Virus record (IMG/VR): IMGVR_UViG_3300028903_000001
Location: 1 to 64,000 of that record
Reading direction: 5' to 3' (one strand)
Length of the DNA stretch: 64,000 nt
Origin: a virus
Lineage: Duplodnaviria > Caudoviricetes
Within the stretch, counting starts at the first letter, position 1. Each line of letters opens with the position of its first letter. This document shows positions 20,825-63,148 of the stretch, piece after piece. Both the position numbers and the translations under genes were made by a program. The notes under the pieces were generated by a model that had not been told where the DNA came from, searched no databases, and worked only from the letters and a program-made list of their open reading frames with translations.

Positions 20825-21511
20825 ATGGTTGAAGTTGCGAAGAAGAAGGAAGCGCCGAAGCCGAAGTTTTGGAACGAGAAGTGCGAGGATGCGTTTCAGA
20901 AGTTCTTGGGGCAAGCGGGTTGGGCAAACACTCCCGAGGACAAGCAGAAGGAACTCGCCGGGATCGACACGAAGATCCAGGCGCTAGAGGCGCAGATCGA
21001 GCGGCTCAACGCTTCGAAGCTCGTCTTTGACAAGCGGGAAGAGATGGTCAAGGACTTGATCAGGGTCGCGTGGGGCGCGCTCGAGGACGACAGTACGCTC
21101 GAGTCCCTGCTCAGCCTCGCCAAGACCAAGTTCAAGATCAAGGCGAAGCGCAGCCCCTCCGCTTCTACCGCGAAGAAGAAGACCGGATCGGGCCGTGGCA
21201 AGATCGACGAGAAGCTGCTTCAGAAACTGCTCGACGTGCTCGATGCAGACGGCAAGACCGTGACGCAACTCGCCAAGGAAATCGGCGAGGGCACCGATAC
21301 CAAGGAGCTTTCCAAGCTGCTCCAGAAACTCATCGCGGCTGAGCGTGTCGGAGCGGAGGGTGAGCGTCGCAGCAAGAAGTACTTCCTGTACGCGGACGGC
21401 GACGACGAGGAAGAGGACGAGCCGGAAGAAGACGAGGACGACGAGGAAGAAGACGAGCTTGACGAGGACGAGGAGGATATCGAGGAAGTGGCGGGAGAAG
21501 AGGAGGACTGA
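20825..21511 (+). CDS. Coiled-coil plus winged-helix DNA-binding protein with acidic tail
   Basis: GKTVTQLAKEIG...LQKLIAAERVGAEGERRSKKYF; GGAG RBS. Confidence 0.65.
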   Translation: MVEVAKKKEAPKPKFWNEKCEDAFQKFLGQAGWANTPEDKQKELAGIDTKIQALEAQIERLNASKLVFDKREEMVKDLIRVAWGALEDDSTLESLLSLAKTKFKIKAKRSPSASTAKKKTGSGRGKIDEKLLQKLLDVLDADGKTVTQLAKEIGEGTDTKELSKLLQKLIAAERVGAEGERRSKKYFLYADGDDEEEDEPEEDEDDEEEDELDEDEEDIEEVAGEEED

Positions 21512-21517
21512 AAGGTC

Positions 21518-21820
21518 CTACCTGCCCTGAACCAGCCCCACCAGATCTGAATCGCTCATCAATCCCTCCCGCCTCCGCTTCTCAATCCCGGTCTTGAACA
21601 GAATCACGGTCGGGACCTTTTTCAGCGCATAGGCTTGAACCAGCCGTGGGCACTCATCGATATCCACATCGACCACGTTGATTCCCGGCGTCTTTGCGGC
21701 AAACGCAGCGACGCGTGGATGCAAGAGGCGGCATGGGCCGCACCACTTGGCCGAAAACACGGCAAGCGTGGTCCCTTTTCGGACGAGTTCGGAGAAGGTC
21801 TGGTCCGTTGCGCTGGTCAT
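21518..21820 (-). CDS. Thioredoxin
   Basis: FSAKWCGPC, VDIDE, VPTVILFK. Confidence 0.9.
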   Translation of the reverse strand: MTSATDQTFSELVRKGTTLAVFSAKWCGPCRLLHPRVAAFAAKTPGINVVDVDIDECPRLVQAYALKKVPTVILFKTGIEKRRREGLMSDSDLVGLVQGR

Positions 21821-22107
21821 CGTTCGCACCTGACGTTGCAGGATCGAAGCTCTTCGATCGTCGTCGCCTTCACGCCGCAACTCGGCCCCGAGCTATCGTC
21901 GGTCCAGATATAGCCGAGACCGGCGATTCGCTCGCACTTCGCTGTGCAGACCTCTTTGGACTCACCTCTCTCCGGGCAGTCGAAGTGTTCGAGCACGATG
22001 CAGAAGCCCTCGCACTTCTCGACGCCTTCCGGCACCACGGGCGGATTCGGCTTGCACGAGCCGATAGCGGTGATGATGGGAATCAGGATGAAAAATCGCT
22101 TGATCAT
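21817..22107 (-). CDS. Cys-rich lipoprotein
   Basis: Signal peptide with lipobox IGSC; multiple Cys. Confidence 0.65.
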   Translation of the reverse strand: MIKRFFILIPIITAIGSCKPNPPVVPEGVEKCEGFCIVLEHFDCPERGESKEVCTAKCERIAGLGYIWTDDSSGPSCGVKATTIEELRSCNVRCER

Positions 22108-22398: not shown

Positions 22399-22653
22399 TC
22401 ATAATCGAGACCTCATTAGGAGGTACGCCAGCACGCCAACCGCGCCGAGCCCGGCGACCCAGACCAGGGGGCTGGTCTCTTCGTCACCAGCCTGTCTTTG
22501 AGAGACATTTAGCATACTTTCATACACCGACTTGTCCCCAGTCTGCTGGTCTCCAGTTTGCTGCCGTGAAGTGTCCCGAATGCTTTCGTAGAACGACTTG
22601 CCTCCCCATCCTGGCGGGAAAGCTCCAAGTCTACCTGGAATACGATATCTCAT
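22399..22653 (-). CDS. Small C-terminally anchored membrane protein
   Basis: LVWVAGLGAVGVLAYLLMRSR. Confidence 0.65.
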   Translation of the reverse strand: MRYRIPGRLGAFPPGWGGKSFYESIRDTSRQQTGDQQTGDKSVYESMLNVSQRQAGDEETSPLVWVAGLGAVGVLAYLLMRSRL

Positions 22654-23426
22654 TGCGCCGCTCCTAACATCTTGAAGGCTTTATCTCTGTCGATCTCAAG
22701 GTACCAAAGCTCGTGGGTATTATCGTCCTCGACCATCCTCCACGCAATATTGCGACGGTAGGGATCGCCCCAACTCGATACGGCTAGTGGACCTTTGGCG
22801 TTGTACGAGTCGAGTAGCTCCATGTGCCTGCCCACGATTTCCCCGGTCAGGACCCATGGCAGCTTACCGGGAACCCAGTCGATGTACGACTCGTCAACGC
22901 TCTGGCCGATCAAGACTGGGCGATGCGTACAGGCGATGATGTGCCGAATCGCGGCTCCGTTTTGGCCCTCTGGCGCGATGATGCGCTTCATCCTAACCCA
23001 GCCCTCGACTGCCGAGATGAGCGCACCGTAGTCGGGCTCCTCATTGACGCGAGACGGGATGAAGGGCCATTTCGCATCAGTGATGAGACCTAGCTCGGAA
23101 ACCACCGCAGCGGCATCGGGCGGGCGGCAGCCGAAATCGACAAGTCTGTCCTTTTTGCCACCGTTGCTGCGCATGCGAGTCGCGAAGTATCCGGCCAGAA
23201 CGCTCATCCATTTAGCGTTAATGCCTTCGTAGCGAAGCGTGTTGTATATCGCGTTGACGAATGCCCACCACACGCAGCTATTGGTGACGGTCTGGTTGCC
23301 ACCGATCCGTGAGAAGCGTTGGAGATGCACGTCTTCGCTGGGCGTGTTGGCGTCAAGCGCCCCAACGCTTCCCCACGGTGCGATCTCTTTTGGCGTAGGC
23401 TCGAGGCCGAACTTCACATTGCGCAT
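22650..23426 (-). CDS. Papain-like (C1) cysteine peptidase
   Basis: NQTVTNSCVWWA (Q/C), GRHMELL (H), SSWG. Confidence 0.7.
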   Translation of the reverse strand: MRNVKFGLEPTPKEIAPWGSVGALDANTPSEDVHLQRFSRIGGNQTVTNSCVWWAFVNAIYNTLRYEGINAKWMSVLAGYFATRMRSNGGKKDRLVDFGCRPPDAAAVVSELGLITDAKWPFIPSRVNEEPDYGALISAVEGWVRMKRIIAPEGQNGAAIRHIIACTHRPVLIGQSVDESYIDWVPGKLPWVLTGEIVGRHMELLDSYNAKGPLAVSSWGDPYRRNIAWRMVEDDNTHELWYLEIDRDKAFKMLGAAQ

Positions 23427-23438
23427 CTCATCAAACCT

Positions 23439-23846
23439 CTACTTGGTCAGCAGGTACGCTCTGGGATCCGCGACAGGCGATCCTCCGACCCCACCGAACG
23501 TGGACAGGAAGGTGCGAACGACCTCCCATGCCTGCGCGAAGGCTTGGAAGATGCCGGGAAGATCGGGCTGGGAACAAGCCTCGGCTGACGCATGCAGCAT
23601 CGACTCGGAGACGCGAAGCGCGCTCCTGGCCTGCGCCAACGCGGCAATCGCCTTGGTCTTTTCTCCGCTCTCTGGAAACGCATCGATGGCGACCTGGGCC
23701 TGCGCCAAGGCGTCCTGCGCCTCGTTGATGAGGACGTTGCCCTGCGCCAGCACGGGGAGCGCCTTGGCGCATGCCGCGTCGAGGTGAGCGCAGGAGGGGA
23801 GCGCGGTTACGAGAGTTGAGAGCAGAAAGAGTTGACACAGCCTCAT
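23439..23846 (-). CDS. Helical lipoprotein
   Basis: Lipobox-like LPSC; Ala-rich coiled coil. Confidence 0.6.
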   Translation of the reverse strand: MRLCQLFLLSTLVTALPSCAHLDAACAKALPVLAQGNVLINEAQDALAQAQVAIDAFPESGEKTKAIAALAQARSALRVSESMLHASAEACSQPDLPGIFQAFAQAWEVVRTFLSTFGGVGGSPVADPRAYLLTK

Positions 23847-24160
23847 TGTCGTTTTCCTTTCAGCGGCAAATTAATCGAACGTGTACTCCCGCAAATGCAG
23901 TTTCTAAGCTCGACCCTTTCCTCACTATCGGACATCTCTCCGATGAGTTCTAGAGAGTTCCATTCGTCTCGCGTATAGAATCTGCCGCAGGAGCAGACAT
24001 TTACTACCTTGGACCGCATCTTTTCATACCTACGAGATCTCTCAGCAGCCCATACTATCACATCCATCGTGGTGTAATTGACCCTATCTAGGCTACTGCG
24101 ACAATACCTGCACAGTAAGCATCTATGGTCGATCCGTCGCTGACAGACAACACAATGCAT
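23843..24160 (-). CDS. Cys-rich Zn-finger protein
   Basis: CVVC..CRYC, CSCG, CICG. Confidence 0.55.
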   Translation of the reverse strand: MHCVVCQRRIDHRCLLCRYCRSSLDRVNYTTMDVIVWAAERSRRYEKMRSKVVNVCSCGRFYTRDEWNSLELIGEMSDSEERVELRNCICGSTRSINLPLKGKRQ

Positions 24161-24164
24161 CCGC

Positions 24165-25016
24165 TTACTTCTTCTTCGCCGTCGCGGCCCACCAGACCAA
24201 AGCGCCGATTCCCACCGCACCGAGTCCCAGCCAGAGTGCGGTATTGCCTTCCTCTTTCTCCTCCTCCGGCTTAGGTTCGTTTCGCATCTGTGAGGAGTCG
24301 AAACGGGATGACTCGTCCCATTGTACCTTTTCTGGACTGAATTCGTCACCTAGCGGAGGCGCATCAGGATCCGGTTTTCGTTCCACTATCTCTGGCAGCT
24401 TCTCAGTCTCCGCTTCAACCTTTGCCGAATCCTCTTTGGTTGGGGCGAGAGGAGACAGTGAAATCGATGGGTCTGTGACCTTGCCAGGTCTTCTTCCGGC
24501 AGACAGATCAACAGTCTTTTTGATAGGAGCAATAGTCTTCCCACCTGGGATATTGATCTTTTCTTTCTCATCCCCACCTATGGGCCACTGACCAGTGCCG
24601 CTAGGATGATCGTCCTCGCCCTTTTCCTTCCCACTAAGATCGACTCCCCAACTAGAACTTTGCTGCCCACTCGAACCTTCGATAACCTGCGGCTCCTCTG
24701 CGTGTGATACATACTTGAATTGGTACCATATGCCACGCTTTTGGTCGTTGAATGAAAGGGACATATTTGCATCGGTACAGTATGTGCCAGATTCAGGCTT
24801 CCATTTTCCATAAAGCCAAATCGTTTTGTACCCATCGACCTGACCACGTATTGATACGGGGAAGTTAGCCTGTTCGCTTTCATGGAGTTGGCCATCCCAT
24901 TTCTGAGTAAGATATGCGCCTATACCCTCCAAGAGCTTTTCGTTACTGATGCCAGCGGATGATACCCTGAACTTGACAAAGTACTTCGCGCCCTGCTTCA
25001 AGTAGATGTTCGCCAT
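24165..25016 (-). CDS. Virion membrane protein, C-terminal TM
   Basis: ALWLGLGAVGIGALVWWAATAKKK. Confidence 0.7.
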   Translation of the reverse strand: MANIYLKQGAKYFVKFRVSSAGISNEKLLEGIGAYLTQKWDGQLHESEQANFPVSIRGQVDGYKTIWLYGKWKPESGTYCTDANMSLSFNDQKRGIWYQFKYVSHAEEPQVIEGSSGQQSSSWGVDLSGKEKGEDDHPSGTGQWPIGGDEKEKINIPGGKTIAPIKKTVDLSAGRRPGKVTDPSISLSPLAPTKEDSAKVEAETEKLPEIVERKPDPDAPPLGDEFSPEKVQWDESSRFDSSQMRNEPKPEEEKEEGNTALWLGLGAVGIGALVWWAATAKKK

Positions 25017-25025
25017 ACCTATCCC

Positions 25026-25691
25026 TCACAGCAGCTTCAGAGCCGCCACTACAATCGTCCCTATCGTTGTGACGAGGGCAACGAAGATGCCTCCGTACAT
25101 GCCGTATCTCGCAGTCTTGGTCTTCTCGGTCTCATCGGTCCAGCGCTGCTTCGCCTCGGCCACAGCGCTTTTCTCTCTCTCATGGATCTTGCGCTCTATG
25201 AGTAGGCTATCCACCTTCTTCTCAAGGTCGACTCTAGCGCTGCGCTCTTTGGTCAATACCGCCTTGACCTCTTTGCCGCTCATCACGCTGATGATACTGG
25301 TGTCGATGTCGAACTCGTCCTCGACAAGGTCTGCCATCTTGACGTCGATGTCTTCATGCCGCGAGTCGCACATGATCTTATGCTTCCCCAGGGTCGAGTC
25401 AAAGTCGGCCATCTTGTCGAAGATCGACTTGTACGCACTGGTCAAGCCAGATACAGACGAGTCTATCTTTGTTACCTTGGCAAGCAGGTTGCCGTACGAC
25501 TCGGAAAGGTCCCCTACACCTTTCACGACGAGGTCAAGCTTCCCCTCGATGGCTTTGCTCGACATGCTCCCCTCCCGCTCTATCGAGGCAATGCGCTTGG
25601 AATGTTCGGCCAGTAGCTTGCTGTGATGCACATGCAGCTTGGCACATGATCCATTTCCAGGCTCTTCCTCTGGGTCTTGATACGGGTTCAC
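25026..25691 (-). CDS. Coiled-coil protein with C-terminal TM
   Basis: Heptad-rich; YGMYGGIFVALVTTIGTIVVAAL. Confidence 0.7.
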   Translation of the reverse strand: MNPYQDPEEEPGNGSCAKLHVHHSKLLAEHSKRIASIEREGSMSSKAIEGKLDLVVKGVGDLSESYGNLLAKVTKIDSSVSGLTSAYKSIFDKMADFDSTLGKHKIMCDSRHEDIDVKMADLVEDEFDIDTSIISVMSGKEVKAVLTKERSARVDLEKKVDSLLIERKIHEREKSAVAEAKQRWTDETEKTKTARYGMYGGIFVALVTTIGTIVVAALKLL

Positions 25692-26071
25692 CGCTTGGCC
25701 TCCTCGTGGTCCGGTTTGGTTGGAGCCTCGTTTCTCGAGAAGGTCGGCGGCACGGTGGGCCGGTCCATTGGGAGGATCGGAGGTGCCTTCACCTTGCTCA
25801 AGACTCGAAATAGGTAACTGTCCCCACCCACAGCGATCAGGGCCGACATGAGCCCGACCAGTCCCGCATCAAGCCATTGCGACACCGAGGCTGGTTTCAC
25901 GAGCAGTCCCACGATGAGAAGTCCAAAGGCAAGCGAGGTAACGAGCGTTTTCCAGCCCGATAGACCTGGGATATGCGCCTTGGCAGCCGCGATTGTCGGC
26001 ACCAAGAGAAGCGAGATCCAAACCGCGAATCCGGCCAGGTCCTTGAAGCGTTCGACGTAGACAGGTTCCAT
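25688..26071 (-). CDS. Holin-like multi-TM protein
   Basis: Three hydrophobic segments and a charged C-tail, near peptidoglycan hydrolase. Confidence 0.5.
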   Translation of the reverse strand: MEPVYVERFKDLAGFAVWISLLLVPTIAAAKAHIPGLSGWKTLVTSLAFGLLIVGLLVKPASVSQWLDAGLVGLMSALIAVGGDSYLFRVLSKVKAPPILPMDRPTVPPTFSRNEAPTKPDHEEAKR

Positions 26072-26077
26072 TGATAT

Positions 26078-26647
26078 CTACCACCTCTTTTGAATCACTG
26101 CCGCGCCGATCCCCAGCGTGACAGCGGCGAGCCCCATCTTCCACCACGACCAGAACGGCTTCTCTTCCTCTACCGGATCGGATAGGTAGGTGTAAGCGGA
26201 GTCGGCCCAGACATCAGATTTACAGCAGCCCTCGTGCTCGCTTTCCGAGACGCAGTAGGTCATCGCGTTCGGTGAGCCGTGAACGATCCATGGGGCCCCG
26301 TCTCCCCCCTGCATCGCTTGACGAATTGACTCTCTCCCCTTGTCATTCTGCGCCATGTACCAGTTGGCGAAGCACGCCATTCTCGGCCAGTCGATGCGGC
26401 AAGTGCCGTCACTGTCTCGCCACGCGCCGGGAACCACTTGCCCCGCATCCATAGCCATCATGCAGTACTGAATCGCATCATCGATCTCTTTGGGGACAGA
26501 CGTGGATTTGCCGTCTCTCAGCCCATCATCGAGCTTCTTGACCGCTTCGTTGCCGAGGACGTTCCTGGTCCACTCTCTTACAAACGTGAGATGAATCTGG
26601 CTTCCAATGTCCTGACTGAAGATGTCGATCTGGCACGTCATTGTCAC
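26078..26647 (-). CDS. Membrane protein, C-terminal TM
   Basis: WWKMGLAAVTLGIGAAVIQKRW. Confidence 0.65.
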   Translation of the reverse strand: MTMTCQIDIFSQDIGSQIHLTFVREWTRNVLGNEAVKKLDDGLRDGKSTSVPKEIDDAIQYCMMAMDAGQVVPGAWRDSDGTCRIDWPRMACFANWYMAQNDKGRESIRQAMQGGDGAPWIVHGSPNAMTYCVSESEHEGCCKSDVWADSAYTYLSDPVEEEKPFWSWWKMGLAAVTLGIGAAVIQKRW

Positions 26648-27249
26648 AGCCTGCTTTGCTTGATGAGCTTGTTTGCGAAGTGATAGGCGATAGCTCCGAC
26701 GAATGCCGATGCCACGATTTTCGCCACGCTGAAGTCGGACTCTTGCCCCCCGACGATCTTGACCGAGACGATACCGGGCGGATACGCAGCGTTGGCGTTG
26801 TAATGGTCGATCTGCTTCTGGCAGATATTCACGTCATTGCTGCGGTCGGGACAGAGATCATTCATGGACAGGCCGGGGTGATACTCGAAATGCACCGCGT
26901 CGCGGCCCCACGAGAAGTGCCCGCCCCAGATAAGGCCAAAGTCCCTGCCTATCTCACCCAGTCTATCATATCTCGGGTCACTGCCGTCTGTGACCGCTGA
27001 TCCGTTTTCGTCAAGGACAAGGACGTCGAAGGCGCGGCCCCAGACATGCCAGCTTCTACAGCCCGAGGCTCCGCTGATGACGGCTCCCGGCTCGGTTCTT
27101 CCCTGCGCATAGATCCGAGTCTGCTCCTCGCATGTTCTTAGCGTGGAGATGACTTTGGTTCTGAGCCCCTGCGATTCCGCCGCTTCAAGGAAGCGCTTCG
27201 CCACCTCGAGTGTGTCGGCAGTGAGGTCCTCAAGCCTGACGCTTGCCAC
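26644..27249 (-). CDS. M15-family peptidoglycan peptidase (L-Ala-D-Glu type) with C-terminal TM
   Basis: LRTCEEQ..YAQGRT, SWHVWGRAFD, WGG.F...DAVHFE. Confidence 0.9.
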   Translation of the reverse strand: MASVRLEDLTADTLEVAKRFLEAAESQGLRTKVISTLRTCEEQTRIYAQGRTEPGAVISGASGCRSWHVWGRAFDVLVLDENGSAVTDGSDPRYDRLGEIGRDFGLIWGGHFSWGRDAVHFEYHPGLSMNDLCPDRSNDVNICQKQIDHYNANAAYPPGIVSVKIVGGQESDFSVAKIVASAFVGAIAYHFANKLIKQSRL

Positions 27250-27252
27250 GGC

Positions 27253-27618
27253 TTATTCCCTCCCCGAAGCGCGCCTGCGCCAGCGCCTAGTGTCGTGACT
27301 CGGACAGGTATGCTCACCATGGCTACGGAGCCAGGTTGAGGCTAGGAAAGAGACGAGGGAGGTTGAAAATCCCATGACGAGACAATCATAGAGCATGTCC
27401 AGGCTTAGGGAAATGTTGCTGGGGCAGAATGCTCGAGAAATGAGCCCGGCCCAGAAGCCGAAGCACATCGAGCAGTAGAATGGGCAGGGAAGCTTTAGGC
27501 CGAGGGTTCTGAGCAGCCTACAGCCGAAGAAGCGCAGGGGCCAGGCGATGTGTGACAGCGTCACTACCAGCGTCAGCCCCACGGCTCCGAGAAGGCAGGG
27601 GAAGAAATGAGTCACCAC
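27253..27618 (-). CDS. DUF1360-like membrane protein
   Basis: Hydrophobic with CSMCFGFW. Confidence 0.5.
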   Translation of the reverse strand: MVTHFFPCLLGAVGLTLVVTLSHIAWPLRFFGCRLLRTLGLKLPCPFYCSMCFGFWAGLISRAFCPSNISLSLDMLYDCLVMGFSTSLVSFLASTWLRSHGEHTCPSHDTRRWRRRASGRE

Positions 27619-27797: not shown

Positions 27798-29108
27798 TCA
27801 ATCGTAGGGGCGGACAAGGAGGTATTGCACATACCCGGTGTCATCAGTTTTGGTTCTCGTAAACGATGTGGCTGCCTTTGCCGTGACGGCAATAGGACCA
27901 TCCGCTGTCTCCGACAACTCACTTGGAATCACGGTGTAGTCGCTAGTGATGCCTGGATATGGCGGATCGATTGTCACAGCGAATCCTGCGGCACCATTGC
28001 CTTGAGGCTCTAGGACGTGCCAATTCGTCCTATCGACAGTTCCGCTTGTCGCGCCGACGCCGATGGAGGTTTGAGAGAACAAAGCCTCTCTCAAATCAGC
28101 ATCGACCAGGTCACCGAAGAGGTGAGGTCCAGTGGTGTCGTATAGCGAGGCGTGCCTGAAGTTGATTCTGGCCCGCTGCGTACCACCCAAGCCGTCATCG
28201 GTGCATCCGACTTGCCCAGCGATCTCGGCATAGTCGAATCTACCGATCTCCGTACCATCAGCAACATTTGTCAACGTGAAGTTGATCGTGATGTCGCCAG
28301 CGATCTTACCACTCGACCAGACGCTGCCGCATGCAAGTGCATCCGTATCGAGAATCGACGCGGTAACGTTCTGGACCTGAGTATCTTTGCCCATTACCGC
28401 CCACCCAAGCTCGTCCACGACTAGATCGGAGAAAAGCGACGATGTGGCAGTGACGGGTCCGCGACCCGAGGCTGGGGCCATGGTGGGAGTGACCGGGTAG
28501 TTGACGGTAATGTCGCCGAACTGGCACGAGTCGATGAACACTGGTCCAGTCGCGACGAATTGAATATCGCTGCCACGGACGTTGTGAATATCGATTCGGT
28601 TGGCTGTCTCGACAAGGACATCGCCGATCAGGTATAGGTCGGAAAGCTCGACACCGTTATAGCTCGTAGCGGCAGCGCTGCCATCCATGACGATAGCGTT
28701 GAAGCCAATGTTCATGATGCCGATGTCGCGGATCTGGAAGTGAGTCACTGCGCCGACGCTGATCTGTGCGCCGAGGATGAAGGTGTCGTTTCGCCCAAAT
28801 CCGCGAAGCGTGACCCTGTCGATCGGCGCGGCGGGCCAGACCAGAGGGACGGTTTGGACATAGGTTCCTGGGCTGACCCAGACCGTGTCTCCGGTCTGGG
28901 CCGCATCCAGGGCGGCTTGAATCGTGGCGTACTTCTTCGTGAAGCTGCCACGCTCAGCCGTCGCGTCGCTGCCGTTGACCTGATCTACGAACAGGATCTT
29001 GCTCCAGTCCGTACCAGCGCCACCGTTTTGGAGGAAGGCTACGAGCCTATGCCAAGCCTGATCAAGGTCGGGCTTGGAGTTGGACAGGGGAGGGGTGGGG
29101 AAACTCAT
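27798..29108 (-). CDS. Right-handed beta-helix spike-like protein
   Basis: FVDQVNGSD...KYATIQAALDAAQTGDTVWVSPGTY. Confidence 0.75.
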   Translation of the reverse strand: MSFPTPPLSNSKPDLDQAWHRLVAFLQNGGAGTDWSKILFVDQVNGSDATAERGSFTKKYATIQAALDAAQTGDTVWVSPGTYVQTVPLVWPAAPIDRVTLRGFGRNDTFILGAQISVGAVTHFQIRDIGIMNIGFNAIVMDGSAAATSYNGVELSDLYLIGDVLVETANRIDIHNVRGSDIQFVATGPVFIDSCQFGDITVNYPVTPTMAPASGRGPVTATSSLFSDLVVDELGWAVMGKDTQVQNVTASILDTDALACGSVWSSGKIAGDITINFTLTNVADGTEIGRFDYAEIAGQVGCTDDGLGGTQRARINFRHASLYDTTGPHLFGDLVDADLREALFSQTSIGVGATSGTVDRTNWHVLEPQGNGAAGFAVTIDPPYPGITSDYTVIPSELSETADGPIAVTAKAATSFTRTKTDDTGYVQYLLVRPYD

Positions 29109-29619: not shown

Positions 29620-29631
29620 GACTTCACCACC

Positions 29632-30132: not shown

Positions 30133-30147
30133 TTGTCTCGACTCCTG

Positions 30148-31496: not shown

Positions 31497-31505
31497 CTCT
31501 CTCTC

Positions 31506-53035: not shown

Positions 53036-53038
53036 GCT

Positions 53039-56000: not shown

Positions 56001-56437
56001 ACGAGTGCGACGAGCGTCGTCTTGAATCCGTAGGGCAGCGCGGCCCCATTCGAAAGCACGCCACCGTTGTACCAGAACCACCAGAGCCCAGGCGCGGGCA
56101 CGGCGATTGTGGACGACTGGTCCGTGACGAAGGTGTGTTTCTGCACACTGCCGCCACCCACCTCGAAGACCTCGAAGCTCGTGGCAGGCGCTTTGATCGC
56201 CATGGTCAGCGTCTTGGTTGCGTCGTCCCAGGTCAGGATCGTGTCGTCCCGGTCCACGACTCCCCTGGGATACGCGGCTTCGATAGGCGTACCAACCTCG
56301 ACGCCATCGATGGTCTCAAGCGCTCTCTGCACATCGGTGTCGCTGGGGCCGAGGATGGAGACGAACGCCGACGTGTCAACGACCGTGTTGACTGCCTCAA
56401 CGAAGCCTGAGCAGCAGCGGAGCATGGACGAACGCAT
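53039..56437 (-). CDS. Large spike/fibre protein with beta-helix domain
   Basis: DHNSLAGR...HPASAI motif; YVSTAGDD...PYATVAAAL...GDVVKLGPGTF; TGATG overlap start. Confidence 0.75.
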   Translation of the reverse strand: MRSSMLRCCSGFVEAVNTVVDTSAFVSILGPSDTDVQRALETIDGVEVGTPIEAAYPRGVVDRDDTILTWDDATKTLTMAIKAPATSFEVFEVGGGSVQKHTFVTDQSSTIAVPAPGLWWFWYNGGVLSNGAALPYGFKTTLVALVYLNAANNAIAVLDERHGINMPWATHQYLHYTIGTRFETGLSLARVATGSGGADGDAQITISGGTIWDEDIEVPITRSAAPSGMFEQELGSGATPGRFPIFYRTGATGTWAKLAVTNFPIYAVTNLRLPQFNTFSGGNWILSDISTNGDYAVMWICATNNVGQADPGGAGYLVEPVFAIMGQGDYASAVDAQDASFSDLNLGTFFANELKPIWKLIYRCSTGYANSVNAYIYEYADLRNTAPIPGTGFVATDHNSLAGRSEPDSHPASAISADTTAFDGNLSALDDTLQKCMDTLDDLAIGEAAFLYVSTAGDDATAVRGLLTKPYATVAAALTDASDGDVVKLGPGTFTETGLVIPDTLTDISIVGSGRGVTTLTFSGGYLGRISATAINRFRLAELTYDQGAATYVAFEGGGTADGYFNTTPDGLTIENVDDISDGVAAAGWNFVKCGYVRLQNVSFMATGGTIVFSDCGEVRLRNVFKRGTSDFWDQIIAIATGTLPTGFTRMLFALYSAKITGTTITADTPALDFTTDASCEITESTLNFRPDAAVVEELNVYLSGRMDDSQINIGADTDTSTVPINAELAGVTMDPNVTITGSDNVAINADLKNSDVSAIEINSDYADSTVDLNADGVRVDSLELNASVGTVTSEVINSQVPEMPTVTGNASLSIRGTTTGTKVSKGWIPAPLAWSYNAGTGNIDTETDPRVYFEVGMPIRFFMPDGIYVWADGATRITAMSLTGLQDIIVEASGRLYFRDVVIGGGDYRVDIYADRDSAGNLENLVGQSEVYTVAGTYNVTEANGSGLGGTITIDALVGADIDSAWEFFRWGVITGLSGSEIIWAGCDIDATASFLWYGDASRVIQVSTFVGGNIGTGTSIVHDTNNQYIPLSAGPSRVVQQLFIADTITGGGVDATWKATIRNEVEPTGDLFSSLTSVTVADTIYLSDKEVGTTQAINRIARHDIVDIRTVAIAGGSVDDLTATLVCVLE

Positions 56438-57855
56438 CAGATCGCACCCTTCTTGCCCTGCGCGGTCCACGTCGCAGGATTGTCGCTGTCAAATGTGATA
56501 CAGTAACTGTCGTACAGAAGCGGCGTATCCACGGCAAGAACCATGTCTGCCGCCGAGGTCAGGCTGATGACCCCACCGTAGAGGTCAGCAGTGATCTCGC
56601 TGTAATTACGCAGTGAGAGGTTCGGCTGCGTCGTCTCGTTGCTCGCATAGATCTTTACGCTGATCGTGGCACCAGCCGTCGCTGTGGCGAGGATGATGGT
56701 CCAGTACGGGAACGTGTCGCCACTGAAGTAGTGCGCGACTAGCGCGTCGGTCGCCACGGCTTGCGAGAAGTCGAAGGGCTCCGTGTTGTCGAAGCTCTGC
56801 ACGACCGGCACGACCTTGTCCGCGTCGGTCACCGAGTCGTAGCTGCGGCTCTGCACGATGAGCATGCGAAGCGCGTTCAGCAGCGCGTATCCCGCATCAC
56901 CATCGGTAAGGGGGACAGCTTCATAATCGTCGATGTACTTGCCACCGATCAGGACTGGGTTTGCCGTCGCCGGATCAGCGTCAGCGTCGATGCCCTGGAT
57001 CGATGGCGAAGAGCTTGGGTCGGTGACGATGAGTCGACCTTCAGAATCGAGGCGAAGGTGGCGATAGACGCCAGGGGCGAGCGGTCCCGGATCGGCAGCC
57101 TCCACAATCGCTCGAGGCTCCGTAACCAGCATCCGCAGCAGGTTCAAAAGCGCGGTACCAATATCGCCATCGTCGAGCGGAGACAGCGTTGGGTCGGCGA
57201 TGAATCTGCCACCGACCGGGACCGGGTTACGGGTTAGCGCGTCTCCATCTACATCGCTTCCCTGCGCGCTTACAATGACACGGCCCTGGTTGTCGAGCCT
57301 GAGTCTGTAGAGCAGTCCATCGGCGTATGGGCCGGGATCCGCGTCCCTCGTGATTGCGATGTCGAGCGGAAGCGTGAGAGGGGCCGCGCCCTCAAGCGTG
57401 GTCCCCTCGATAGAGACGGGCTCTTCAATCGCACCTCCCCCGCCACCCGCGCCAGCCGTGGCAGACGAGGCGGCAAACTCATAGTCACCAGCCGGTGGCT
57501 GGTCCTCGAGCGAGACCACGATTGCCACGTCCATGCGAGACGAGGCCCTGGAGTCCTTACGGTCTATGATGTTGGGAAGCGGAATGAAATGAACCTCACC
57601 GGCAGGAAGCGTGTGTGCATCGGCGAACAGGTACCACTCCTCGGTCTGCTCGTCCCAGAGATAGAGACTGACAGAGGCATCCGGTGCCAGAGCGGGACCG
57701 TTGTAGGCTAGCGCAATCGACTCGAGCGGCTCGGTGTGCGGGCCATACTGCGGCGCGTGAAACACGTTGTCGAGCAGGAGATAGGCCGCATCGGTCGGGA
57801 CCGCGTCTGTGCCGATGGTAGCATCGGTTCGAGTAAAGACGTGTTCGAGTTTCAT
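56437..57855 (-). CDS. Structural protein with internal duplication
   Basis: Two copies of DPGP....Y..LRLD..GR.IV...QG.D.D.D..T.NPV..GG.....PL.DGD.G.ALLN.LRML. Confidence 0.7.
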   Translation of the reverse strand: MKLEHVFTRTDATIGTDAVPTDAAYLLLDNVFHAPQYGPHTEPLESIALAYNGPALAPDASVSLYLWDEQTEEWYLFADAHTLPAGEVHFIPLPNIIDRKDSRASSRMDVAIVVSLEDQPPAGDYEFAASSATAGAGGGGGAIEEPVSIEGTTLEGAAPLTLPLDIAITRDADPGPYADGLLYRLRLDNQGRVIVSAQGSDVDGDALTRNPVPVGGRFIADPTLSPLDDGDIGTALLNLLRMLVTEPRAIVEAADPGPLAPGVYRHLRLDSEGRLIVTDPSSSPSIQGIDADADPATANPVLIGGKYIDDYEAVPLTDGDAGYALLNALRMLIVQSRSYDSVTDADKVVPVVQSFDNTEPFDFSQAVATDALVAHYFSGDTFPYWTIILATATAGATISVKIYASNETTQPNLSLRNYSEITADLYGGVISLTSAADMVLAVDTPLLYDSYCITFDSDNPATWTAQGKKGAI

Positions 57856-57858: not shown

Positions 57859-58284
57859 TTACTTGCTTCCTTTGACGACGAGTCCAACCATCACTGCGGC
57901 CATGGCAGCCATGACGAGTGGAGGTATCCAAGGCATCGAGCCACCGCTCACCTCTACCTCATGCCTCGGAACCGGAGCGGTGCCGGAAATGGGTCGGATC
58001 CAGAACAGTTTCGTTCGATTATCAAGCACCAGCGGCTGACCATCTTTGCCTGTCCATGTCGCTTCGGCCCAGAACTGAGAGACGAAGTCAGCCTTGGTCT
58101 CTTTCCGATCGTCATCGGGCCATTCCTTGGGAAGCGTTTCCCAATCATCCCAGACCCGGACGTCAGCGAACCCAACCGACTCGAGCCCCTTCTTGACCTG
58201 GGACGAGCCAGCGAATGCCGAGGCTTCACCAGTAACGACAAGTGAGCCGCGATACCTTGTCCCAGTGCTTAGCACAAATGCCAT
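57859..58284 (-). CDS. Membrane protein, C-terminal TM
   Basis: WIPPLVMAAMAAVMVGLVVKGSK. Confidence 0.7.
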   Translation of the reverse strand: MAFVLSTGTRYRGSLVVTGEASAFAGSSQVKKGLESVGFADVRVWDDWETLPKEWPDDDRKETKADFVSQFWAEATWTGKDGQPLVLDNRTKLFWIRPISGTAPVPRHEVEVSGGSMPWIPPLVMAAMAAVMVGLVVKGSK

Positions 58285-58291
58285 ATTTGCC

Positions 58292-59101
58292 TCAGAGGAT
58301 GACGCAGCCGCTGCCGCCGACTTCCTTACCGGCCCAACGCGGAATTAGGATGTTATCGATGACTCGCGGCGCAATGACCTTGGACTGATAGATATGGTCG
58401 GTGCATGTCTTTTCCATATTGCGGTAGCCAAGAAGCCAAAGCCCACCCACCTTGTACTGGAACTTGCCAGGAATCTTGGTGTAGGTATACTTGCCTATCA
58501 GTTTCTTTACACCATTTACCTCCTGATAGCACAGTGTCGGTATGGGCGCATGATCCGCGTCTACCAGCGCACTGATTGTCACTGGATCCATGTAGACCGG
58601 AGACTGCATGACATGGTCGAGAATCTCGAGTGAGGCTTGTTCCGTGGAGATGGAAGCCTGGGGCGGCTTAGGCGTCTCACTGCTAGTCACGACGAGGCAA
58701 TGCTCGGTGGGTGCGATGTTTGGATTGCCAGAGCTACCGAAGGCGGCGAGCCTCGCATACCGCTTCCAGGCAGGCCACATCAGATGGATGCCGTCGCAGG
58801 CCAAGACGAAGTCTGGCGCGCCACCGTCAGGGCTCGAGAGAAGAACCGCAACGCCGATACAAGTCTCGGAAAAGCCGAGAATGGCAACCCTGTTTCCAGG
58901 CTTATCTAAGCCATGATTCTTTAGCGCCTGCTTGATGGGACGCTCGCCATAGGCAGATTTGATAGCATTGCTGTAGGCGTCAAAGTTTCTACCATTGCCC
59001 TTTGGCATGGTAATCTCTGCCGTGTCGGATCTAAAGCTAGCCCGCCAGTTCTTCCCGAACCAGGAGTGAAGCTCGCCGAAGTGAAGGATGATGTCTGTCA
59101 T
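58292..59101 (-). CDS. Alpha/beta-hydrolase-like protein
   Basis: VAILGFSET, ACDGIH, DHIYQ; same motif order as 14386-15135. Confidence 0.45.
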   Translation of the reverse strand: MTDIILHFGELHSWFGKNWRASFRSDTAEITMPKGNGRNFDAYSNAIKSAYGERPIKQALKNHGLDKPGNRVAILGFSETCIGVAVLLSSPDGGAPDFVLACDGIHLMWPAWKRYARLAAFGSSGNPNIAPTEHCLVVTSSETPKPPQASISTEQASLEILDHVMQSPVYMDPVTISALVDADHAPIPTLCYQEVNGVKKLIGKYTYTKIPGKFQYKVGGLWLLGYRNMEKTCTDHIYQSKVIAPRVIDNILIPRWAGKEVGGSGCVIL

Positions 59102-60600
59102 TCCTCTACCGTGCGCCTGCGGCTCTTGTTCCAGTCGAGAAGCGCCGCGATGCCGTATACCGCCACGCCTCCCATCGCGATGACCATCAGAGCGGTCAAT
59201 GCAGACTCTGCGGTCTTAGCTAGCTTGCTAAACGGGCTCACCTCTTCCTTCTTGACATCGATCTCTGCCTTGTCTCTCGCCTGGCTACTGAGTTCGCTTT
59301 GAATCCTGAGCGCTTCCTTGGTAGCTTCTTCTCGACTCATGCCCCCAGCTACAAGCTTTTCGGTCTGCTCAGTGACAAAGTCCTGAGCCCTCCTCATCGA
59401 CGCCTTGTCGAGGTGCGCCTTCACGACGTCGCAAACCTCTTTGACCGATAGGTACTGAATGACGGAACCGATGATGACTGCGCCGACGACGAGCCCGACA
59501 TATGCCGCACCCATCGTTCCTGGAGGCGTTATCGTGGTATCCTCGATGACGAATCGCTTCGTCGCTTCGTCAAAGCCTACCCTGGGCTCACCCGGCTTGC
59601 CTAGAATGAGAGAACTGGACTGATCGACGTCATAGGCCAGCCTGCGCTTGTCGGTCGCGCCGTCGTAGCCGTAGTTGATCATTTTGGGTATCCACTTCTC
59701 CATATCACCGTAGTAGTCCTCGCTAGCCTGCGGCCAGGACTCGCTGATGATCGAATACCCCATCATCTCACAGGCCAGTTTGTACTGCCTGTGTTGGAAC
59801 CTCACGTCGTAAAACGAGTCGGCGAGATCCGAGGTGATGCGTTTGACCTGTTCCCTCATATATTCGTAGAACGACTCTGTGATTCCGGTTAGACCCGGCT
59901 CGGCTTGTCCCGCTAGCATTCCTCCCGGCCTGCCAACTCCAACGAATCTGCCCGTGTTGTCACTAGATCCCAAGCCCGACGGGACCCTAGCGGCATCGAC
60001 GACACCGTTTTTATCCGCCAAGACCTTACCTCCGGGAACCGCGATGAAGGTCTCCCGCGTCGGCTTGGAAGCGGTGCCGAATGGATCGCTTGTCGAGGGA
60101 TCGCACCTAACCCATACGCCCCGCTTCTCGTCTCTCACCGCCGCGAGAACATGCGTATGCTGGCGATGCGGCTCGTAGCTATGAGCGACGACGCAGCCTT
60201 CAATCCCCACGCTTTCAATCGCGGAAAGGAAGGCAACAACGAGACCGTCACAGTCTTCGCCCATGAACACGAGACCGTCGCAGCCCTCGAGCGTGCAAGC
60301 GGCGCTGGGGATGAATTCACCATCGATAGGGTCTTCGATGTAGGGACGCTCTTTTCGAAGACGTTCGAGGATAGCCTTTGCCTGAGCCATCTTGTCGGCC
60401 TGGAATCCACCCAGCCCGCCGCGAACAATGGTCTCCCTGGCCCAAGCCACGGTCTTTGGGTCCATGCGTCCCTTCTCGACGCGGTCCACGATTTCGGACA
60501 GGGAGACCCTGATCCCTTTTTCGCCCCTGGGGTGGGGGCGGCTCACGGTCTTGGGACCAGCGGTTCGGTTAGGTTGTTTTCGCGAGGGCTCGTTGCGCAT
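59098..60600 (-). CDS. Transglutaminase-like cysteine protease with two C-terminal TM segments
   Basis: GEDCDGL (C), HTHVL (H), WVRCDPS (D); PYIEDP upstream. Confidence 0.85.
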   Translation of the reverse strand: MRNEPSRKQPNRTAGPKTVSRPHPRGEKGIRVSLSEIVDRVEKGRMDPKTVAWARETIVRGGLGGFQADKMAQAKAILERLRKERPYIEDPIDGEFIPSAACTLEGCDGLVFMGEDCDGLVVAFLSAIESVGIEGCVVAHSYEPHRQHTHVLAAVRDEKRGVWVRCDPSTSDPFGTASKPTRETFIAVPGGKVLADKNGVVDAARVPSGLGSSDNTGRFVGVGRPGGMLAGQAEPGLTGITESFYEYMREQVKRITSDLADSFYDVRFQHRQYKLACEMMGYSIISESWPQASEDYYGDMEKWIPKMINYGYDGATDKRRLAYDVDQSSSLILGKPGEPRVGFDEATKRFVIEDTTITPPGTMGAAYVGLVVGAVIIGSVIQYLSVKEVCDVVKAHLDKASMRRAQDFVTEQTEKLVAGGMSREEATKEALRIQSELSSQARDKAEIDVKKEEVSPFSKLAKTAESALTALMVIAMGGVAVYGIAALLDWNKSRRRTVEE

Positions 60601-62803
60601 AGGCTATACCGTCCAGGAGGCTTTTCGATCCCCCCGACGATACGACGGGCTTTGCGCTAGGTCCATGTTGCGTAGGTACTTTTTTCTCCGTCCACGCCGG
60701 TTTACTGGGAGGCGACGGGCTCGAGACCGTGACGGGAACAGGGGCTGGGGGAGACGTGGCGACGGTGACAGCGTTCCCGCTCTGGAGCGCATCGACCGTG
60801 GACTGCGACGGCGCGAGCCGCCTCGAGAGCATGTCGATCTGTTGCGCCTGAAGCTGCTGGTTTTCCATGAGTTGCTGCTGCATCTGCTCAAACATGCGAT
60901 AGGTGTCCCGCATCTCTTCCTGTCTACGAGCATCTTTCACATGCTGCCTCAACTCACCAAGCGCCTTGATACCTGGCTCAATCCACGATTTGACATTGTC
61001 GGCGTTGAGAGCCATCATGGTGAAGAAATCGACAGCTTTACCGTCCTTGTCGGTCACGTACCGAAACGGTCCCATCTCAAATACCTTGAGCGGAGAGCCG
61101 TCTTCCGCCTTGGTCTCGGACTGGACCAAAGCCTGTTGTGGCGGCGGTTGCTGCATCCACTGAGGCATTTGAGGCGGGGGCGGAACGGGTGGGGATGATG
61201 GTGAGAGCTTTTCGAACATCTCTTTTAGCTCTGCCATCTGCTTCATCGTCTTTCGCATCTCGCTAAGCGAGTCCTTTGGCTCGGGCGGCGGCGGCTGCTG
61301 TTGTTGCTGTTGCGGCATCCCCATCTGAGCCCACTGCGCCATTTGCTGCTGCATCTGAATCTGCTGCTGCTGCGCCTCGGTGGCCTTCAGTCTCTCATCC
61401 ACCAATCTGGCGATTTCCTCCATGCTCATCATTTGAGGCTGCTGCATAGGCTGTTGCTGCATCGCGGCTTGAGCCTTAGCCTCCTCGAGTTGCTGCTTCA
61501 TGCTATGGAGCGACCCGTTGAGAGTTGACAGCATTTGCCAGACCTGGAACTGCTGCTGATACGAGGCTTGCGTACTTGCGCTTCTCATATCGTGGTTGTT
61601 CCGCTTCTGAAGCTTCTTGATCTGGCGGTTCAATCCCTTGATCGTCCCCTCTAGCTGAAGTATTCGATAGTCGGGTTGTGGCTGCTGCGGCTGGTATGGG
61701 TTGTGACCCATTCTACTGGGAGGAGGCGGCGGAATATCCTCGATGAATTCCTCCTCTTCCTCCTCGTCATCGTCGTCATCGTCAACTTGATCCTGCGGAG
61801 GCGGCGGCGGCTGCATCCACGGCATTTGCTGCGGCCATCCCGGCATTTGTGGCTGTGGCTGTGGCCATTGCGGCTGCCCCCATTGCTGCTGTGGCTGCTG
61901 CGGAGGCGACTGTTGAAGCTGTGGTTGGGCCCAACCCTGCTGCTGCGGTGAAAGCCATTCCTGCGGTGGATGCTGCCTTTGCGGTTGCGGCTCGCCCCAT
62001 TGCTGCTGCGGTTGCTGAACCTGCTGCGGAGGATCCTGCCATTGTTGGGCTCGAGGCTGCTGCTGCTGAGACCGAGACTGCTGCGGGTCCTGCCACTGCT
62101 GCTGCGGTTGCTGAGCCTGCTGCGGATCGGAGGGCAGGGGAACACCTCTGGCTTGTGCCTCGATTGTTTTCCACTCGATCCTTCGCTTTGGGTTGTCACC
62201 CAGTTTGAGATAGCAAACCGCAGCAATGCTTCTGCCGGTAGAGTACATGATGATCTTGTACTTCTGCGGAGTGCCGTCCCATTGATTGTTGCAGATATAC
62301 TCACTGAGCTTACCCCAGTTTGGAACCTGATGAAGCGGTATCACTCCAACATGGTGGGCCACCGGCTGCTCAAGTGAGATCTCAACCTCGGACGACGAGC
62401 CGAAAAGAGTCATGCACTTCTCGGAGCCATAGTTGTATTTGATGCCGTCTTGACCATGCCAGGGAACCCTGGCGTGATTCTTTCGCATCTCGATGACGCG
62501 GTTAGCGGTCTGATTCTGAAGCCTGGCTTCGTCGTCGAGACCGTTTAGAAGCTCTTGTCGCTCCTCGTCCTCAGTCATCGGTCTATCACGCTGGACGGGT
62601 GCGGATAGCTCCTGTCGCTGCGGCTCTTCGTCGTAGCTATCCAACTCCTCATCTTCATCTTCATCTTCATCCTCATCCTCGTTTTCCTCCACGAGGATTT
62701 CCTCTTCCCTCTTCTTTCTCGCCCTACCCGCTACGGCTGGCTTATTCCTCGGTCGTCCCCTTCGCTTCATACCCGCCAGTGATTGATTCTGCTTTCGAGC
62801 CAT
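60569..62803 (-). CDS. Gln/Pro-rich low-complexity coiled-coil protein
   Basis: QQQW/PQQQ repeats, acidic runs, coiled coil. Confidence 0.75.
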   Translation of the reverse strand: MARKQNQSLAGMKRRGRPRNKPAVAGRARKKREEEILVEENEDEDEDEDEDEELDSYDEEPQRQELSAPVQRDRPMTEDEERQELLNGLDDEARLQNQTANRVIEMRKNHARVPWHGQDGIKYNYGSEKCMTLFGSSSEVEISLEQPVAHHVGVIPLHQVPNWGKLSEYICNNQWDGTPQKYKIIMYSTGRSIAAVCYLKLGDNPKRRIEWKTIEAQARGVPLPSDPQQAQQPQQQWQDPQQSRSQQQQPRAQQWQDPPQQVQQPQQQWGEPQPQRQHPPQEWLSPQQQGWAQPQLQQSPPQQPQQQWGQPQWPQPQPQMPGWPQQMPWMQPPPPPQDQVDDDDDDEEEEEEFIEDIPPPPPSRMGHNPYQPQQPQPDYRILQLEGTIKGLNRQIKKLQKRNNHDMRSASTQASYQQQFQVWQMLSTLNGSLHSMKQQLEEAKAQAAMQQQPMQQPQMMSMEEIARLVDERLKATEAQQQQIQMQQQMAQWAQMGMPQQQQQQPPPPEPKDSLSEMRKTMKQMAELKEMFEKLSPSSPPVPPPPQMPQWMQQPPPQQALVQSETKAEDGSPLKVFEMGPFRYVTDKDGKAVDFFTMMALNADNVKSWIEPGIKALGELRQHVKDARRQEEMRDTYRMFEQMQQQLMENQQLQAQQIDMLSRRLAPSQSTVDALQSGNAVTVATSPPAPVPVTVSSPSPPSKPAWTEKKVPTQHGPSAKPVVSSGGSKSLLDGIAYAQRALAKTT

Positions 62804-62815
62804 ATCGTCTCCTAA

Positions 62816-63148
62816 TTAGGGGATTGGGGGAGCGGGGACAACTACGCCTTCCAAGACGGTCCCAGGTAGACGTGTCGAGAAAGCCGACTTGAAAGCACCG
62901 AGAAGTGACTGGTACTTCAAGTCGTCGGTAGGGTTGGCCGCATCGAATTCTGCCGTGAGCGTGACCCGGATCGTCCTGAGAATCTGCCCTGGTACCAACT
63001 CGCTCGTCGCGTCGGCAGCCAGGGTGAAGTCCAAAGCTCTCTCACTCAGGATATCCACAATGGGTACAGCCGCGACTTTCGCCAAAGCGGTGGCGGTTTT
63101 CATCGGAGTTCCTGAGAAAGTGAATATGATTCTGTATTCAGCGTCCAT
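62816..63148 (-). CDS. Hypothetical protein
   Basis: 110 aa, co-oriented. Confidence 0.6.
   Translation of the reverse strand: MDAEYRIIFTFSGTPMKTATALAKVAAVPIVDILSERALDFTLAADATSELVPGQILRTIRVTLTAEFDAANPTDDLKYQSLLGAFKSAFSTRLPGTVLEGVVVPAPPIP

Follow-up and report, generated by a model that had tools for sequence, protein, structure and literature searches.

A predicted tailless, membrane-containing virion module without a recognizable packaging motor in a complete 120-kb bacterial virus genome

The well-studied large bacterial viruses are all tailed and rely on a terminase-portal motor. To our knowledge, tailless membrane-containing phages are known only with genomes of ~9-44 kb, which has been taken as the limit of that build. 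The Halopanivirales (P23-77, IN93, SH1, HCIV-1 and SNJ1) are icosahedral viruses with an internal membrane and two single-jelly-roll capsid proteins, and PRD1 of the Tectiviridae carries a transglycosylase, P7, that has a C-terminal transmembrane (TM) helix. PRD1 is reported to build its shell upon a vesicle that is pinched off the cytoplasmic membrane (PMC6356626). SSIP-1 is a tailless phage that contains a membrane and has a circular genome of 43.8 kb, for which hardly any database similarity has been reported (PMC6356626). SPV1 of the Portogloboviridae has no packaging ATPase (PMC8812541), and an inner lipid layer is reported to surround its nucleoprotein core (PMC8459092). Here we analyze IMG/VR virus record IMGVR_UViG_3300028903_000001, a single contig of 119,895 bp whose first 64 kb constitute the window under study, and in particular a long minus-strand operon of this record that we compare with the systems above.

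The reading toward which we lean on balance is that this operon is the virion module of a complete bacterial virus of ~119.8 kb that is tailless, membrane-containing and jelly-roll-based, that uses no packaging motor and that represents a new large lineage. The virus belongs to no known family and is best filed as a new, large-genome form of the tailless membrane-virus build. Its size of 120 kb exceeds that of every characterized tailless bacterial virus we know of and is nearly three times that of the largest described. A preliminary description of this DNA, made from its sequence alone, had already proposed a tailless membrane jelly-roll virus larger than the characterized prokaryotic members. 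The size comparison is borne out (120 kb versus 43.8 kb for SSIP-1), as are the predicted jelly-roll, the lack of hallmark genes and the membrane anchors, but the link to a known group is not supported, and more than one protein is a candidate for the main shell protein.

The two ends of the record overlap by 127 bp in an exact match, which is the usual mark of a circular assembly, and the unique sequence amounts to 119,768 bp with a GC content of 58%. The corresponding IMG/VR/CheckV entry gives a direct terminal repeat (DTR) and 100% completeness. The genome is thus complete, and gene absences can therefore be tested across the whole of it. The operon runs in a single direction from ~64.5 kb down to ~22 kb and holds ~50 open reading frames (ORFs) in ~42 kb, which is less than the more than 50 kb of structural genes first proposed. 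Nearly all of these ORFs are without a Pfam or PHROGs match. Pfam matches are limited to SLT, M15/VanY, BNR, DUF5661 (1.2e-21) and a weak cement-protein match, and PHROGs matches to endolysin/transglycosylase families, a ferredoxin family (2.3e-12) and a few near 1e-3; the batch scan does not name the ORFs that match DUF5661 and the ferredoxin family. The minus-strand ORFs of the preliminary description are present and are real frames, as judged by a comparison of GC content at third codon positions (GC3) with a 926-aa plus-strand ORF at 35112-37892. The latter lies antisense to two of the genes listed below, those for the jelly-roll and polybasic proteins, has a non-coding codon-position GC pattern and a GC3 of 0.59 versus 0.82 and 0.68 for the underlying minus-strand genes, and was rejected as an antisense artefact. 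The following four genes form the center of the module:

36549-38048, minus strand: polybasic membrane protein of 499 aa, net charge +66, a candidate genome-condensing, membrane-tethered protein
35193-36479, minus strand: predicted jelly-roll protein of 428 aa, capsid-shell candidate from AlphaFold2 (AF2) modeling, fold searches, family and GC3
34435-35064, minus strand: conserved partner of the jelly-roll protein, 209 aa, always the next gene after it; candidate second shell protein
33649-34431, minus strand: protein of 260 aa, most conserved of the trio and 50% identical in related locus L004; candidate shell or vertex protein

The 428-aa protein has 21 close homologues (37-84% identity), and a profile search of 1.84 billion representatives extends the family to 94 clusters at E <=1e-3, with most members 390-470 aa in length. 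None of the 87 members tested has a Pfam match in hidden Markov model (HMM) searches. No member was found by tblastn among 50,697 deposited phage genomes, scans of IMG/VR with the protein or its alignment returned no relative, and PDB profile searches with the family gave nothing meaningful. An AF2 model built from a shallow alignment of 21 sequences was poor (predicted local distance difference test score, pLDDT, of 64), while a deep alignment of 87 sequences gave a mostly beta-strand model with a pLDDT of 85.6 and a predicted template modeling score (pTM) of 0.86. The jelly-roll core of this model comprises residues 26-362 and includes ~200 residues of insertions. Because single-domain jelly-roll targets align from ~26 to ~362, the first and last strands would belong to one sandwich. 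The protein is predicted to be a beta-sandwich jelly-roll, of single or possibly rearranged double form, and not the HK97 fold that the preliminary description had weighed as the alternative; no HK97-type chain occurs in the structural-match lists. The Foldseek ranking is led by jelly-roll capsid proteins (human papillomavirus L1, PRD1 P3, SPV1 and D13), and the best structural neighbors are capsid proteins of the membrane-containing viruses HCIV-1, PRD1 and SPV1, at weak scores (Z <=5.7). Additionally, the gene has a GC3 of 0.818, the highest among the 96 genome ORFs of at least 150 aa (median 0.68).

In every relative examined, the jelly-roll gene is followed by a gene for ~200-240 aa and then by a gene for ~260-313 aa. 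Distant members of the jelly-roll family reside on contigs of 63.8, 85.0 and 139.8 kb, and no hallmark Pfam match occurs within 10 kb on either side of the trio in those contigs. Against these distant relatives a profile of the 260-aa protein built from six close sequences scores 4.5e-66 to 8e-58 and a profile of the 209-aa protein (A6, also from close sequences only) 2e-22 to 4e-16, while a close-sequence profile of the 428-aa protein reaches only 7e-18 to 1e-11; on these E-values the 260-aa protein is the most conserved of the three. Neither the 209-aa nor the 260-aa protein has a match in Pfam or in PDB sequences, and tblastn of the latter against the 50,697 phage records found none. In a language-model atlas, the clusters closest to the 209-aa protein are those with PM2 P2 / PRD1 P3 capsid domains, at only 0.75-0.77, a link that we set aside after HMM searches gave no corroboration. 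Profile-profile comparison found no paralogy among the three families, and a complex prediction for the trio (428 + 260 + 209 aa) scored 0.00, below the mark, and counts neither way. Any of the three is a candidate for the main shell protein. Of the capsid-like cluster first drawn at 33649-38048, the conserved trio, jelly-roll gene included, is retained as a set of candidates, but the 36549-38048 product is a polybasic membrane protein and not capsid-like. The family is found in sludge, wastewater and landfill metagenomes. A bolder proposal, which we put forward tentatively and regard as less likely than not but far from negligible, is that these viruses (at least 94 clusters, on contigs of 64-140 kb) form a deep, undescribed lineage of large bacterial viruses whose particle derives from neither the HK97 nor the known jelly-roll lines. 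The shell would consist of a new trio over a virus-encoded membrane, and in place of a nucleoside triphosphatase motor the genome would be condensed by the membrane-tethered polybasic protein and enclosed while the particle takes shape.

The module is also rich in proteins that appear to be held in a membrane by their C-termini. C-tail anchors, which consist of a hydrophobic C-terminal helix plus a few basic residues, were assigned to at least 10 of 51 module ORFs, compared with ~3 convincing cases among 118 ORFs elsewhere in the genome. These proteins and their neighbors are as follows:

22399-22653, 24165-25016, 25026-25691, 30663-31496 and 31506-32996, minus strand: C-tail-anchored ORFs by hydropathy and inspection
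32999-33652, 39496-40344, 41569-42495, 57859-58284 and 59098-60600, minus strand: C-tail-anchored ORFs by the same approach
39496-40344, minus strand: lytic transglycosylase SLT (PF01464, 8.4e-7) with a predicted C-terminal TM anchor (residues 257-275) and basic tail
30663-33652, minus strand: three C-tail-anchored proteins, one of 217 aa, one of 496 aa that is Cys-rich with a LysM-like N-terminus, and one of 277 aa with two LysM-like segments
22399-27618, minus strand: distal block with an M15/VanY peptidase (26644-27249), a polytopic membrane protein (25688-26071), C-tail-anchored proteins and small Cys-rich proteins

None of the ten has an N-terminal TM helix, and the set, which includes the SLT transglycosylase and both LysM-like proteins, would be made without signal peptides. 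A C-terminal "anchor" reported by the hydropathy script for the 1143-aa protein of the operon contains two Asp residues, is doubtful and was not counted. Homologues of the 39496-40344 product carry the SLT annotation as well, and similar C-tail-anchored proteins follow the trio in the distant relatives L018-L020. Sequence comparison therefore confirms the predicted membrane anchoring of cell-wall enzymes as real and as conserved in distant relatives. The preliminary description had listed SLT, M15 and LysM proteins as membrane-anchored. This holds for SLT, which combines PF01464 with a C-terminal TM helix, whereas the M15/VanY domain is present with only a borderline C-terminal anchor, and the LysM-like proteins 30663-31496 and 31506-32996 have clear C-terminal anchors but a faint Pfam match, seen on the L005 homologue and weakly on the L018 gene at the same position. 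Proteins anchored by their tails have their N-terminal domains in the cytoplasm, and the wall-degrading domains would therefore stay off the wall until they leave with a patch of membrane. Such a topology fits the PRD1 vesicle-assembly model (PMC6356626).

Directly upstream of the jelly-roll gene, and in the same place in L004, L005, L010, L011 and L012, is the gene for the 499-aa polybasic protein. Its N-terminal 170 aa are rich in K/R, its TM helices are central and its C-terminus is Pro-rich; the L018 equivalent has a net charge of +74. A polybasic membrane protein of this kind could also form a nucleoprotein beneath an envelope, and the particle might be non-icosahedral or enveloped, that is pleomorphic, vesicle-like or otherwise novel, with the trio as matrix, spike or fusion components. 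Such a particle would agree with the lack of a packaging motor of any kind and with the numerous membrane-anchored and spike-like proteins, and jelly-roll folds also occur in proteins other than those of shells. However, known pleomorphic prokaryotic viruses have genomes of 7-17 kb with few structural genes, the strictly conserved trio and highly codon-biased jelly-roll gene look more shell-like, and icosahedral capsid proteins top the Foldseek ranking. We judge a pleomorphic particle to be quite improbable.

The genome contains no tailed-phage hallmark gene and no known packaging ATPase at the sensitivity of HMM searches. Six-frame searches of the whole genome at E <=10 gave zero candidates for terminase (PF03237, PF03354 and PF04466; Terminase_6N, TerL_ATPase and Terminase_3), for Phage_portal (PF04860) and for the HK97 Phage_capsid (PF05065), while the same searches gave matches in several control genomes. 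No terminase PHROG was matched in 48 module ORFs (E <=1e-3) or in ten large uncharacterized ORFs (E <=0.01), Pfam scans of the same 48 module ORFs likewise gave no terminase, portal or capsid match, no portal match was present among the ORFs scanned with PHROGs or Pfam, and tail tube, sheath, tape-measure and baseplate had no match in the PHROG scans. Nearly all ORFs of at least 320 aa were scanned singly with Pfam or PHROGs (83641-85365 with PHROGs only; 42506-43924 and 43921-45078 in the first scans only), and none resembled a terminase, portal, capsid or tail part. Tail-related PHROG matches were confined to weak ones of 1.9e-4 to 8.5e-4 ("tail fiber", "neck" and "lytic tail protein"); those to "tail fiber" and "neck" fall on the beta-helix N-terminus of a spike, and that to "lytic tail protein" on an ORF that the scan does not identify. 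For packaging ATPases, FtsK_SpoIIIE, DUF87/HerA, AAA_10 and Pox_A32 (PF01580, PF01935, PF12846 and PF04665) had no match in the whole genome, and a Walker A scan retrieved only NTPases of replication type (DnaB, SNF2, a DEAD helicase and, within the replication block, an AAA protein of 393 aa) together with a small kinase-like ORF of 149 aa. The earlier statement that terminase, portal, HK97-type capsid, tail tube, sheath and tape measure are missing is thus upheld at the HMM level and now extends over the entire 120 kb, flanks included.

These results bear directly on the possibility of a highly diverged tailed phage (Caudoviricetes) whose hallmarks have drifted beyond HMM recognition and whose jelly-roll protein is a decoration, vertex or fiber protein. 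For a tailed phage 120 kb is an ordinary size, jelly-roll domains are known in tail fibers and head turrets (9rkv, 8qpg), and atlas neighbors are labeled Uroviricota, albeit automatically. Two further features of the module are relevant to this possibility:

29119-30642, minus strand: three tandem cement-like paralogs of ~165 aa each, with 34-46% mutual identity
27798-29108, minus strand: right-handed beta-helix spike of 436 aa with a conserved N-terminal motif

In the ~165-aa family, present in 2-6 copies in relatives, 8 of 17 members match PF09956, a family of phage cement proteins (best 5.6e-5, below Pfam's own cut-off), and the module has one "head decoration" PHROG match (2e-4). A PDB profile search with this family gave nothing meaningful, and with tblastn one paralog matched the "tail fiber" of a podovirus too weakly for use (E 8e-3). 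The spike is homologous to solved tail fibers and tailspikes, its family profile matching 9rkv (tail fiber) at 2.1e-9, 8fqc (tailspike) at 1.4e-6 and pectinesterases at 0.015. The N-termini of the spike and cement-like proteins align weakly (hhalign probability 23%), which hints at a common attachment segment such that the paralogs may be peripheral. A diverged tailed phage would still have to be reconciled with zero TerL, portal and capsid candidates even at E <=10 in six frames of a complete genome, and with the lack of tube, sheath, tape-measure and baseplate matches. Four of the module proteins of TerL or portal size are other things: the 744-aa ORF was rejected as a terminase for its Q/P/E-rich low complexity, the 499-aa and 500-aa ORFs were rejected as portals since they are the polybasic membrane protein and a membrane-anchored protein, respectively, and the 436-aa ORF after the cement-like genes, where an HK97 capsid gene might be sought, is the beta-helix spike; those of 472, 472, 385 and 330 aa are left unexplained. 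The dense set of tail-anchored proteins would also remain unaccounted for. Because cement- and spike-type modules move between virus groups, we consider a diverged tailed phage unlikely.

Like the Halopanivirales, this genome has adjacent conserved shell-candidate genes, two of them VP16/VP17-like in size (209 and 260 aa), a circular map and many small membrane proteins. Unlike them, it has no FtsK/HerA ATPase and no sequence similarity to the group, it is 4-7 times larger, and its predicted jelly-roll protein is 428 aa long with ~200 residues of insertions. With PRD1 it shares virion-associated, membrane-bound wall hydrolases (here predicted), many small membrane proteins and, on the favored reading, a membrane-vesicle mode of assembly. 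It departs from PRD1 in that no clear double jelly-roll is predicted, one sandwich spanning residues 26 to 362 of the model, in that P3/PM2 P2 Pfam matches and a P9-type ATPase are missing, and in having a circular map and not a linear genome with inverted terminal repeats, at 8 times the size. The assignment as PRD1-like or Halopanivirales-like that the preliminary description had entertained is not supported, as the packaging ATPase (FtsK/HerA/A32) that was to be sought in the flanking sequence is absent from the genome. Some double jelly-roll groups also are without an FtsK/HerA/A32 ATPase (PMC8812541), and thus its absence does not by itself exclude Bamfordvirae. SPV1 likewise has no packaging ATPase, and its lipid layer and nucleoprotein core find a parallel in the polybasic membrane protein, but SPV1 infects hyperthermophilic archaea, has a genome of ~20 kb and shows no sequence similarity to this genome of 119.8 kb, whose DnaB, sigma-70 region 4, SLT, M15/VanY and LysM proteins are of bacterial type. 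Finally, the structural run gp45-47 of SSIP-1 (~210-256 aa) is near in size to the 209- and 260-aa genes, but profile searches of five families against 33 SSIP-1 ORFs gave E >=0.03 or so (best 0.029, bit score 4.2) with scores <5, and hhalign probabilities were <=6.4%; at the level of sequence there is no detectable relationship.

The favored reading of a tailless, membrane-containing virus suggests the following course of assembly. The tail-anchored proteins would insert in the inner membrane of the host such that the enzymatic and binding domains face the cytoplasm, away from the cell wall. Much as PRD1 is modeled to assemble, a shell of the trio proteins would then enclose a patch of that membrane. 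The genome would be condensed by the polybasic membrane protein (+66), which we infer condenses DNA against the membrane, and would be enclosed during assembly with no pumping by a motor. Such motor-free enclosure would parallel what has been proposed for SPV1, likewise without a packaging ATPase. Upon infection, the spikes would attach to glycans on the cell surface, and the peptidoglycan would be opened by the SLT and M15 enzymes carried in the virus membrane.

Several points weigh against this reading. The particle and its lipid are predictions from the gene content, and the shell roles of the 209- and 260-aa proteins are those of candidates. The capsid matches of the 428-aa model (Z <=5.7) tie with peptidylglycine monooxygenase, TNF-like and C1q domains, and the fold thus agrees with a shell role but does not identify one. 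There is no precedent for a 120-kb genome that is enclosed in the absence of a motor. The polybasic protein is not kept in the most distant relatives, and its L019 and L020 equivalents are not basic. Additionally, the cement-like paralogs (PF09956) and the beta-helix spike belong to families best known from tailed phages.

The remainder of the module consists of conserved core genes and of a more variable portion:

60569-62803, minus strand: first large gene of the operon, 744 aa, candidate internal or scaffold protein with no Pfam/PHROG match
59098-60600, minus strand: conserved core protein of 500 aa with two C-terminal TM helices and a transglutaminase-like Cys-His-Asp motif recognized by eye
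57859-59101, minus strand: two conserved core genes, for 269 aa (58292-59101) and for a C-tail-anchored 141 aa (57859-58284)
49203-57855, minus strand: variable acidic block of proteins of 472 aa (with an internal repeat), 1143 aa (beta-helix domain), 314 aa and 963 aa (BNR/sialidase-like)
41569-45078, minus strand: three genes, for a basic 385-aa protein (43921-45078), a 472-aa protein and a C-tail-anchored 308-aa protein (41569-42495)
38075-38614, minus strand: conserved core protein of 179 aa, 39-93% identical in five of five related loci

The 744-aa protein has a basic N-terminus, long Q/P/E-rich, low-complexity, coiled-coil-like stretches and a short piece conserved in L004. The 500-aa protein and its homologue in L004 share 36% identity across 498 aa; the former had been described as a transglutaminase-like protease, of which the Cys-His-Asp motif can be seen but no HMM or PDB match was obtained. 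PDB profile searches with the 500-aa and 1143-aa proteins, and with a 1236-aa protein outside the operon, gave nothing meaningful. The acidic proteins have net charges of -31 to -75, and because the genes that flank 40.5-57.8 kb adjoin each other in L004, the 472-, 1143-, 314- and 963-aa proteins look like a swappable host-recognition block. Within it, the 1143-aa protein (53039-56470) is 32% identical to the 436-aa spike over 159 aa and the 963-aa protein (49203-52094) matches BNR_2 at 1.6e-11. The spikes first described are thus confirmed by the profile of 27798-29108 to 9rkv/8fqc, by the domain it has in common with 53039-56470 and by the BNR/sialidase-like 49203-52094. The 385-aa protein has a net charge of +25 and an HExxH motif at residue 140; on this motif it is possibly a metalloprotease and could be the processing enzyme of the module. 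At 45646-48389 of the window, a two-gene cassette composed of a small ORF and a ~300-330-aa ORF is duplicated, the small-ORF tails being 85% and the large ORFs 30% identical.

Recognizable genes are located in the replication and accessory parts of the genome, at ~64.6-120 kb and probably 1-21 kb, where coordinates above 64,000 refer to the complete genome (G000) and fall outside the window. They include DnaB, SNF2 and DEAD helicases, a 393-aa AAA protein, a PD-(D/E)XK nuclease, an RNase T-like exonuclease, GP88, DUF5131, a sigma-70 region 4 protein, three pentapeptide-repeat proteins, two PcfJ-like genes, two TnpB-like genes and one tRNA-Arg. The two PcfJ-like genes, from a family known from conjugative plasmids, together with the two TnpB-like genes, the circular assembly and the lack of any recognized viral hallmark gene, might indicate that the element is not a virus but a large plasmid or mobile element with an operon for envelope, surface and wall remodeling. 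We find this very improbable, as there is no match to a conjugation ATPase or relaxase type (AAA_10, FtsK and DUF87 zero), 61 PHROG families are matched at E <=1e-5 in the non-structural half, including phage-type DnaB, GP88 and DUF5131, endolysin-type enzymes occur with a phage tailspike homologue in one 42-kb unidirectional operon, and both the record and one relative, a viral operational taxonomic unit (vOTU), are catalogued as viral.

Several of these genes deserve brief mention. The PcfJ-like paralogs (9519-10364 in the window and G000 64613-66334) are 46% identical over 254 aa, and one of them, encoded on the other strand, flanks the structural operon where it starts. The adjacent TnpB/Cas12f-like ORFs of the replication half are G000 80602-82596 (664 aa), with a Cas12f TNB domain (1e-7), and G000 83641-85365 (574 aa), which matches transposase family phrog_506 (3e-38). 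The pentapeptide-repeat proteins (G000 67038-67862, 69420-70823 and 98123-98806) have repeats that are 46-56% identical; proteins of this type can mimic DNA, and an anti-defense or gyrase-directed role is possible. On the plus strand, G000 72041-73307 encodes a second SLT-like C-tail-anchored protein beside a small C-tail-anchored protein, outside the main operon, and this pair may be a lysis cassette. The sole tRNA gene, for tRNA-Arg(CCT), is at G000 75870-75943 on the minus strand. In the window, beyond the range of the preliminary description, a 1236-aa ORF at 15138-18848 is unmatched in Pfam, PHROGs, PDB sequences and the 50,697 phage genomes. It is followed by a C-tail-anchored 249-aa ORF (14386-15135) and a gene for a GNAT-domain protein, and the group may contribute additional virion or host-modifying functions.

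The genome originates from activated sludge, and near-identical DNA is contained in activated-sludge runs. In a 2025 wastewater run, a relative that is 90-99% identical covers 27 of 30 bins. Three activated-sludge metatranscriptome libraries yield contigs at least 99% identical and dispersed over the module; contigs can neither demonstrate transcription nor rank genes, and DNA may have been carried over. The myxobacterial host guessed at earlier finds no support, as the only taxon labels are Parcubacteria and Planctomycetales metagenome-assembled genome bins (two small contigs in a GTDB scan), which are not host evidence.

If the favored reading is correct, then bacterial viruses with a tailless, lipid-containing build can have large genomes, with contigs of the family reaching at least 140 kb, and no known motor is required for the encapsidation of large DNA genomes. 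There would then be a sizeable group of viruses whose capsid gene is unmatched in 50,697 phage records or in the searched IMG/VR contigs, and for which three conserved marker proteins are available for finding further relatives.

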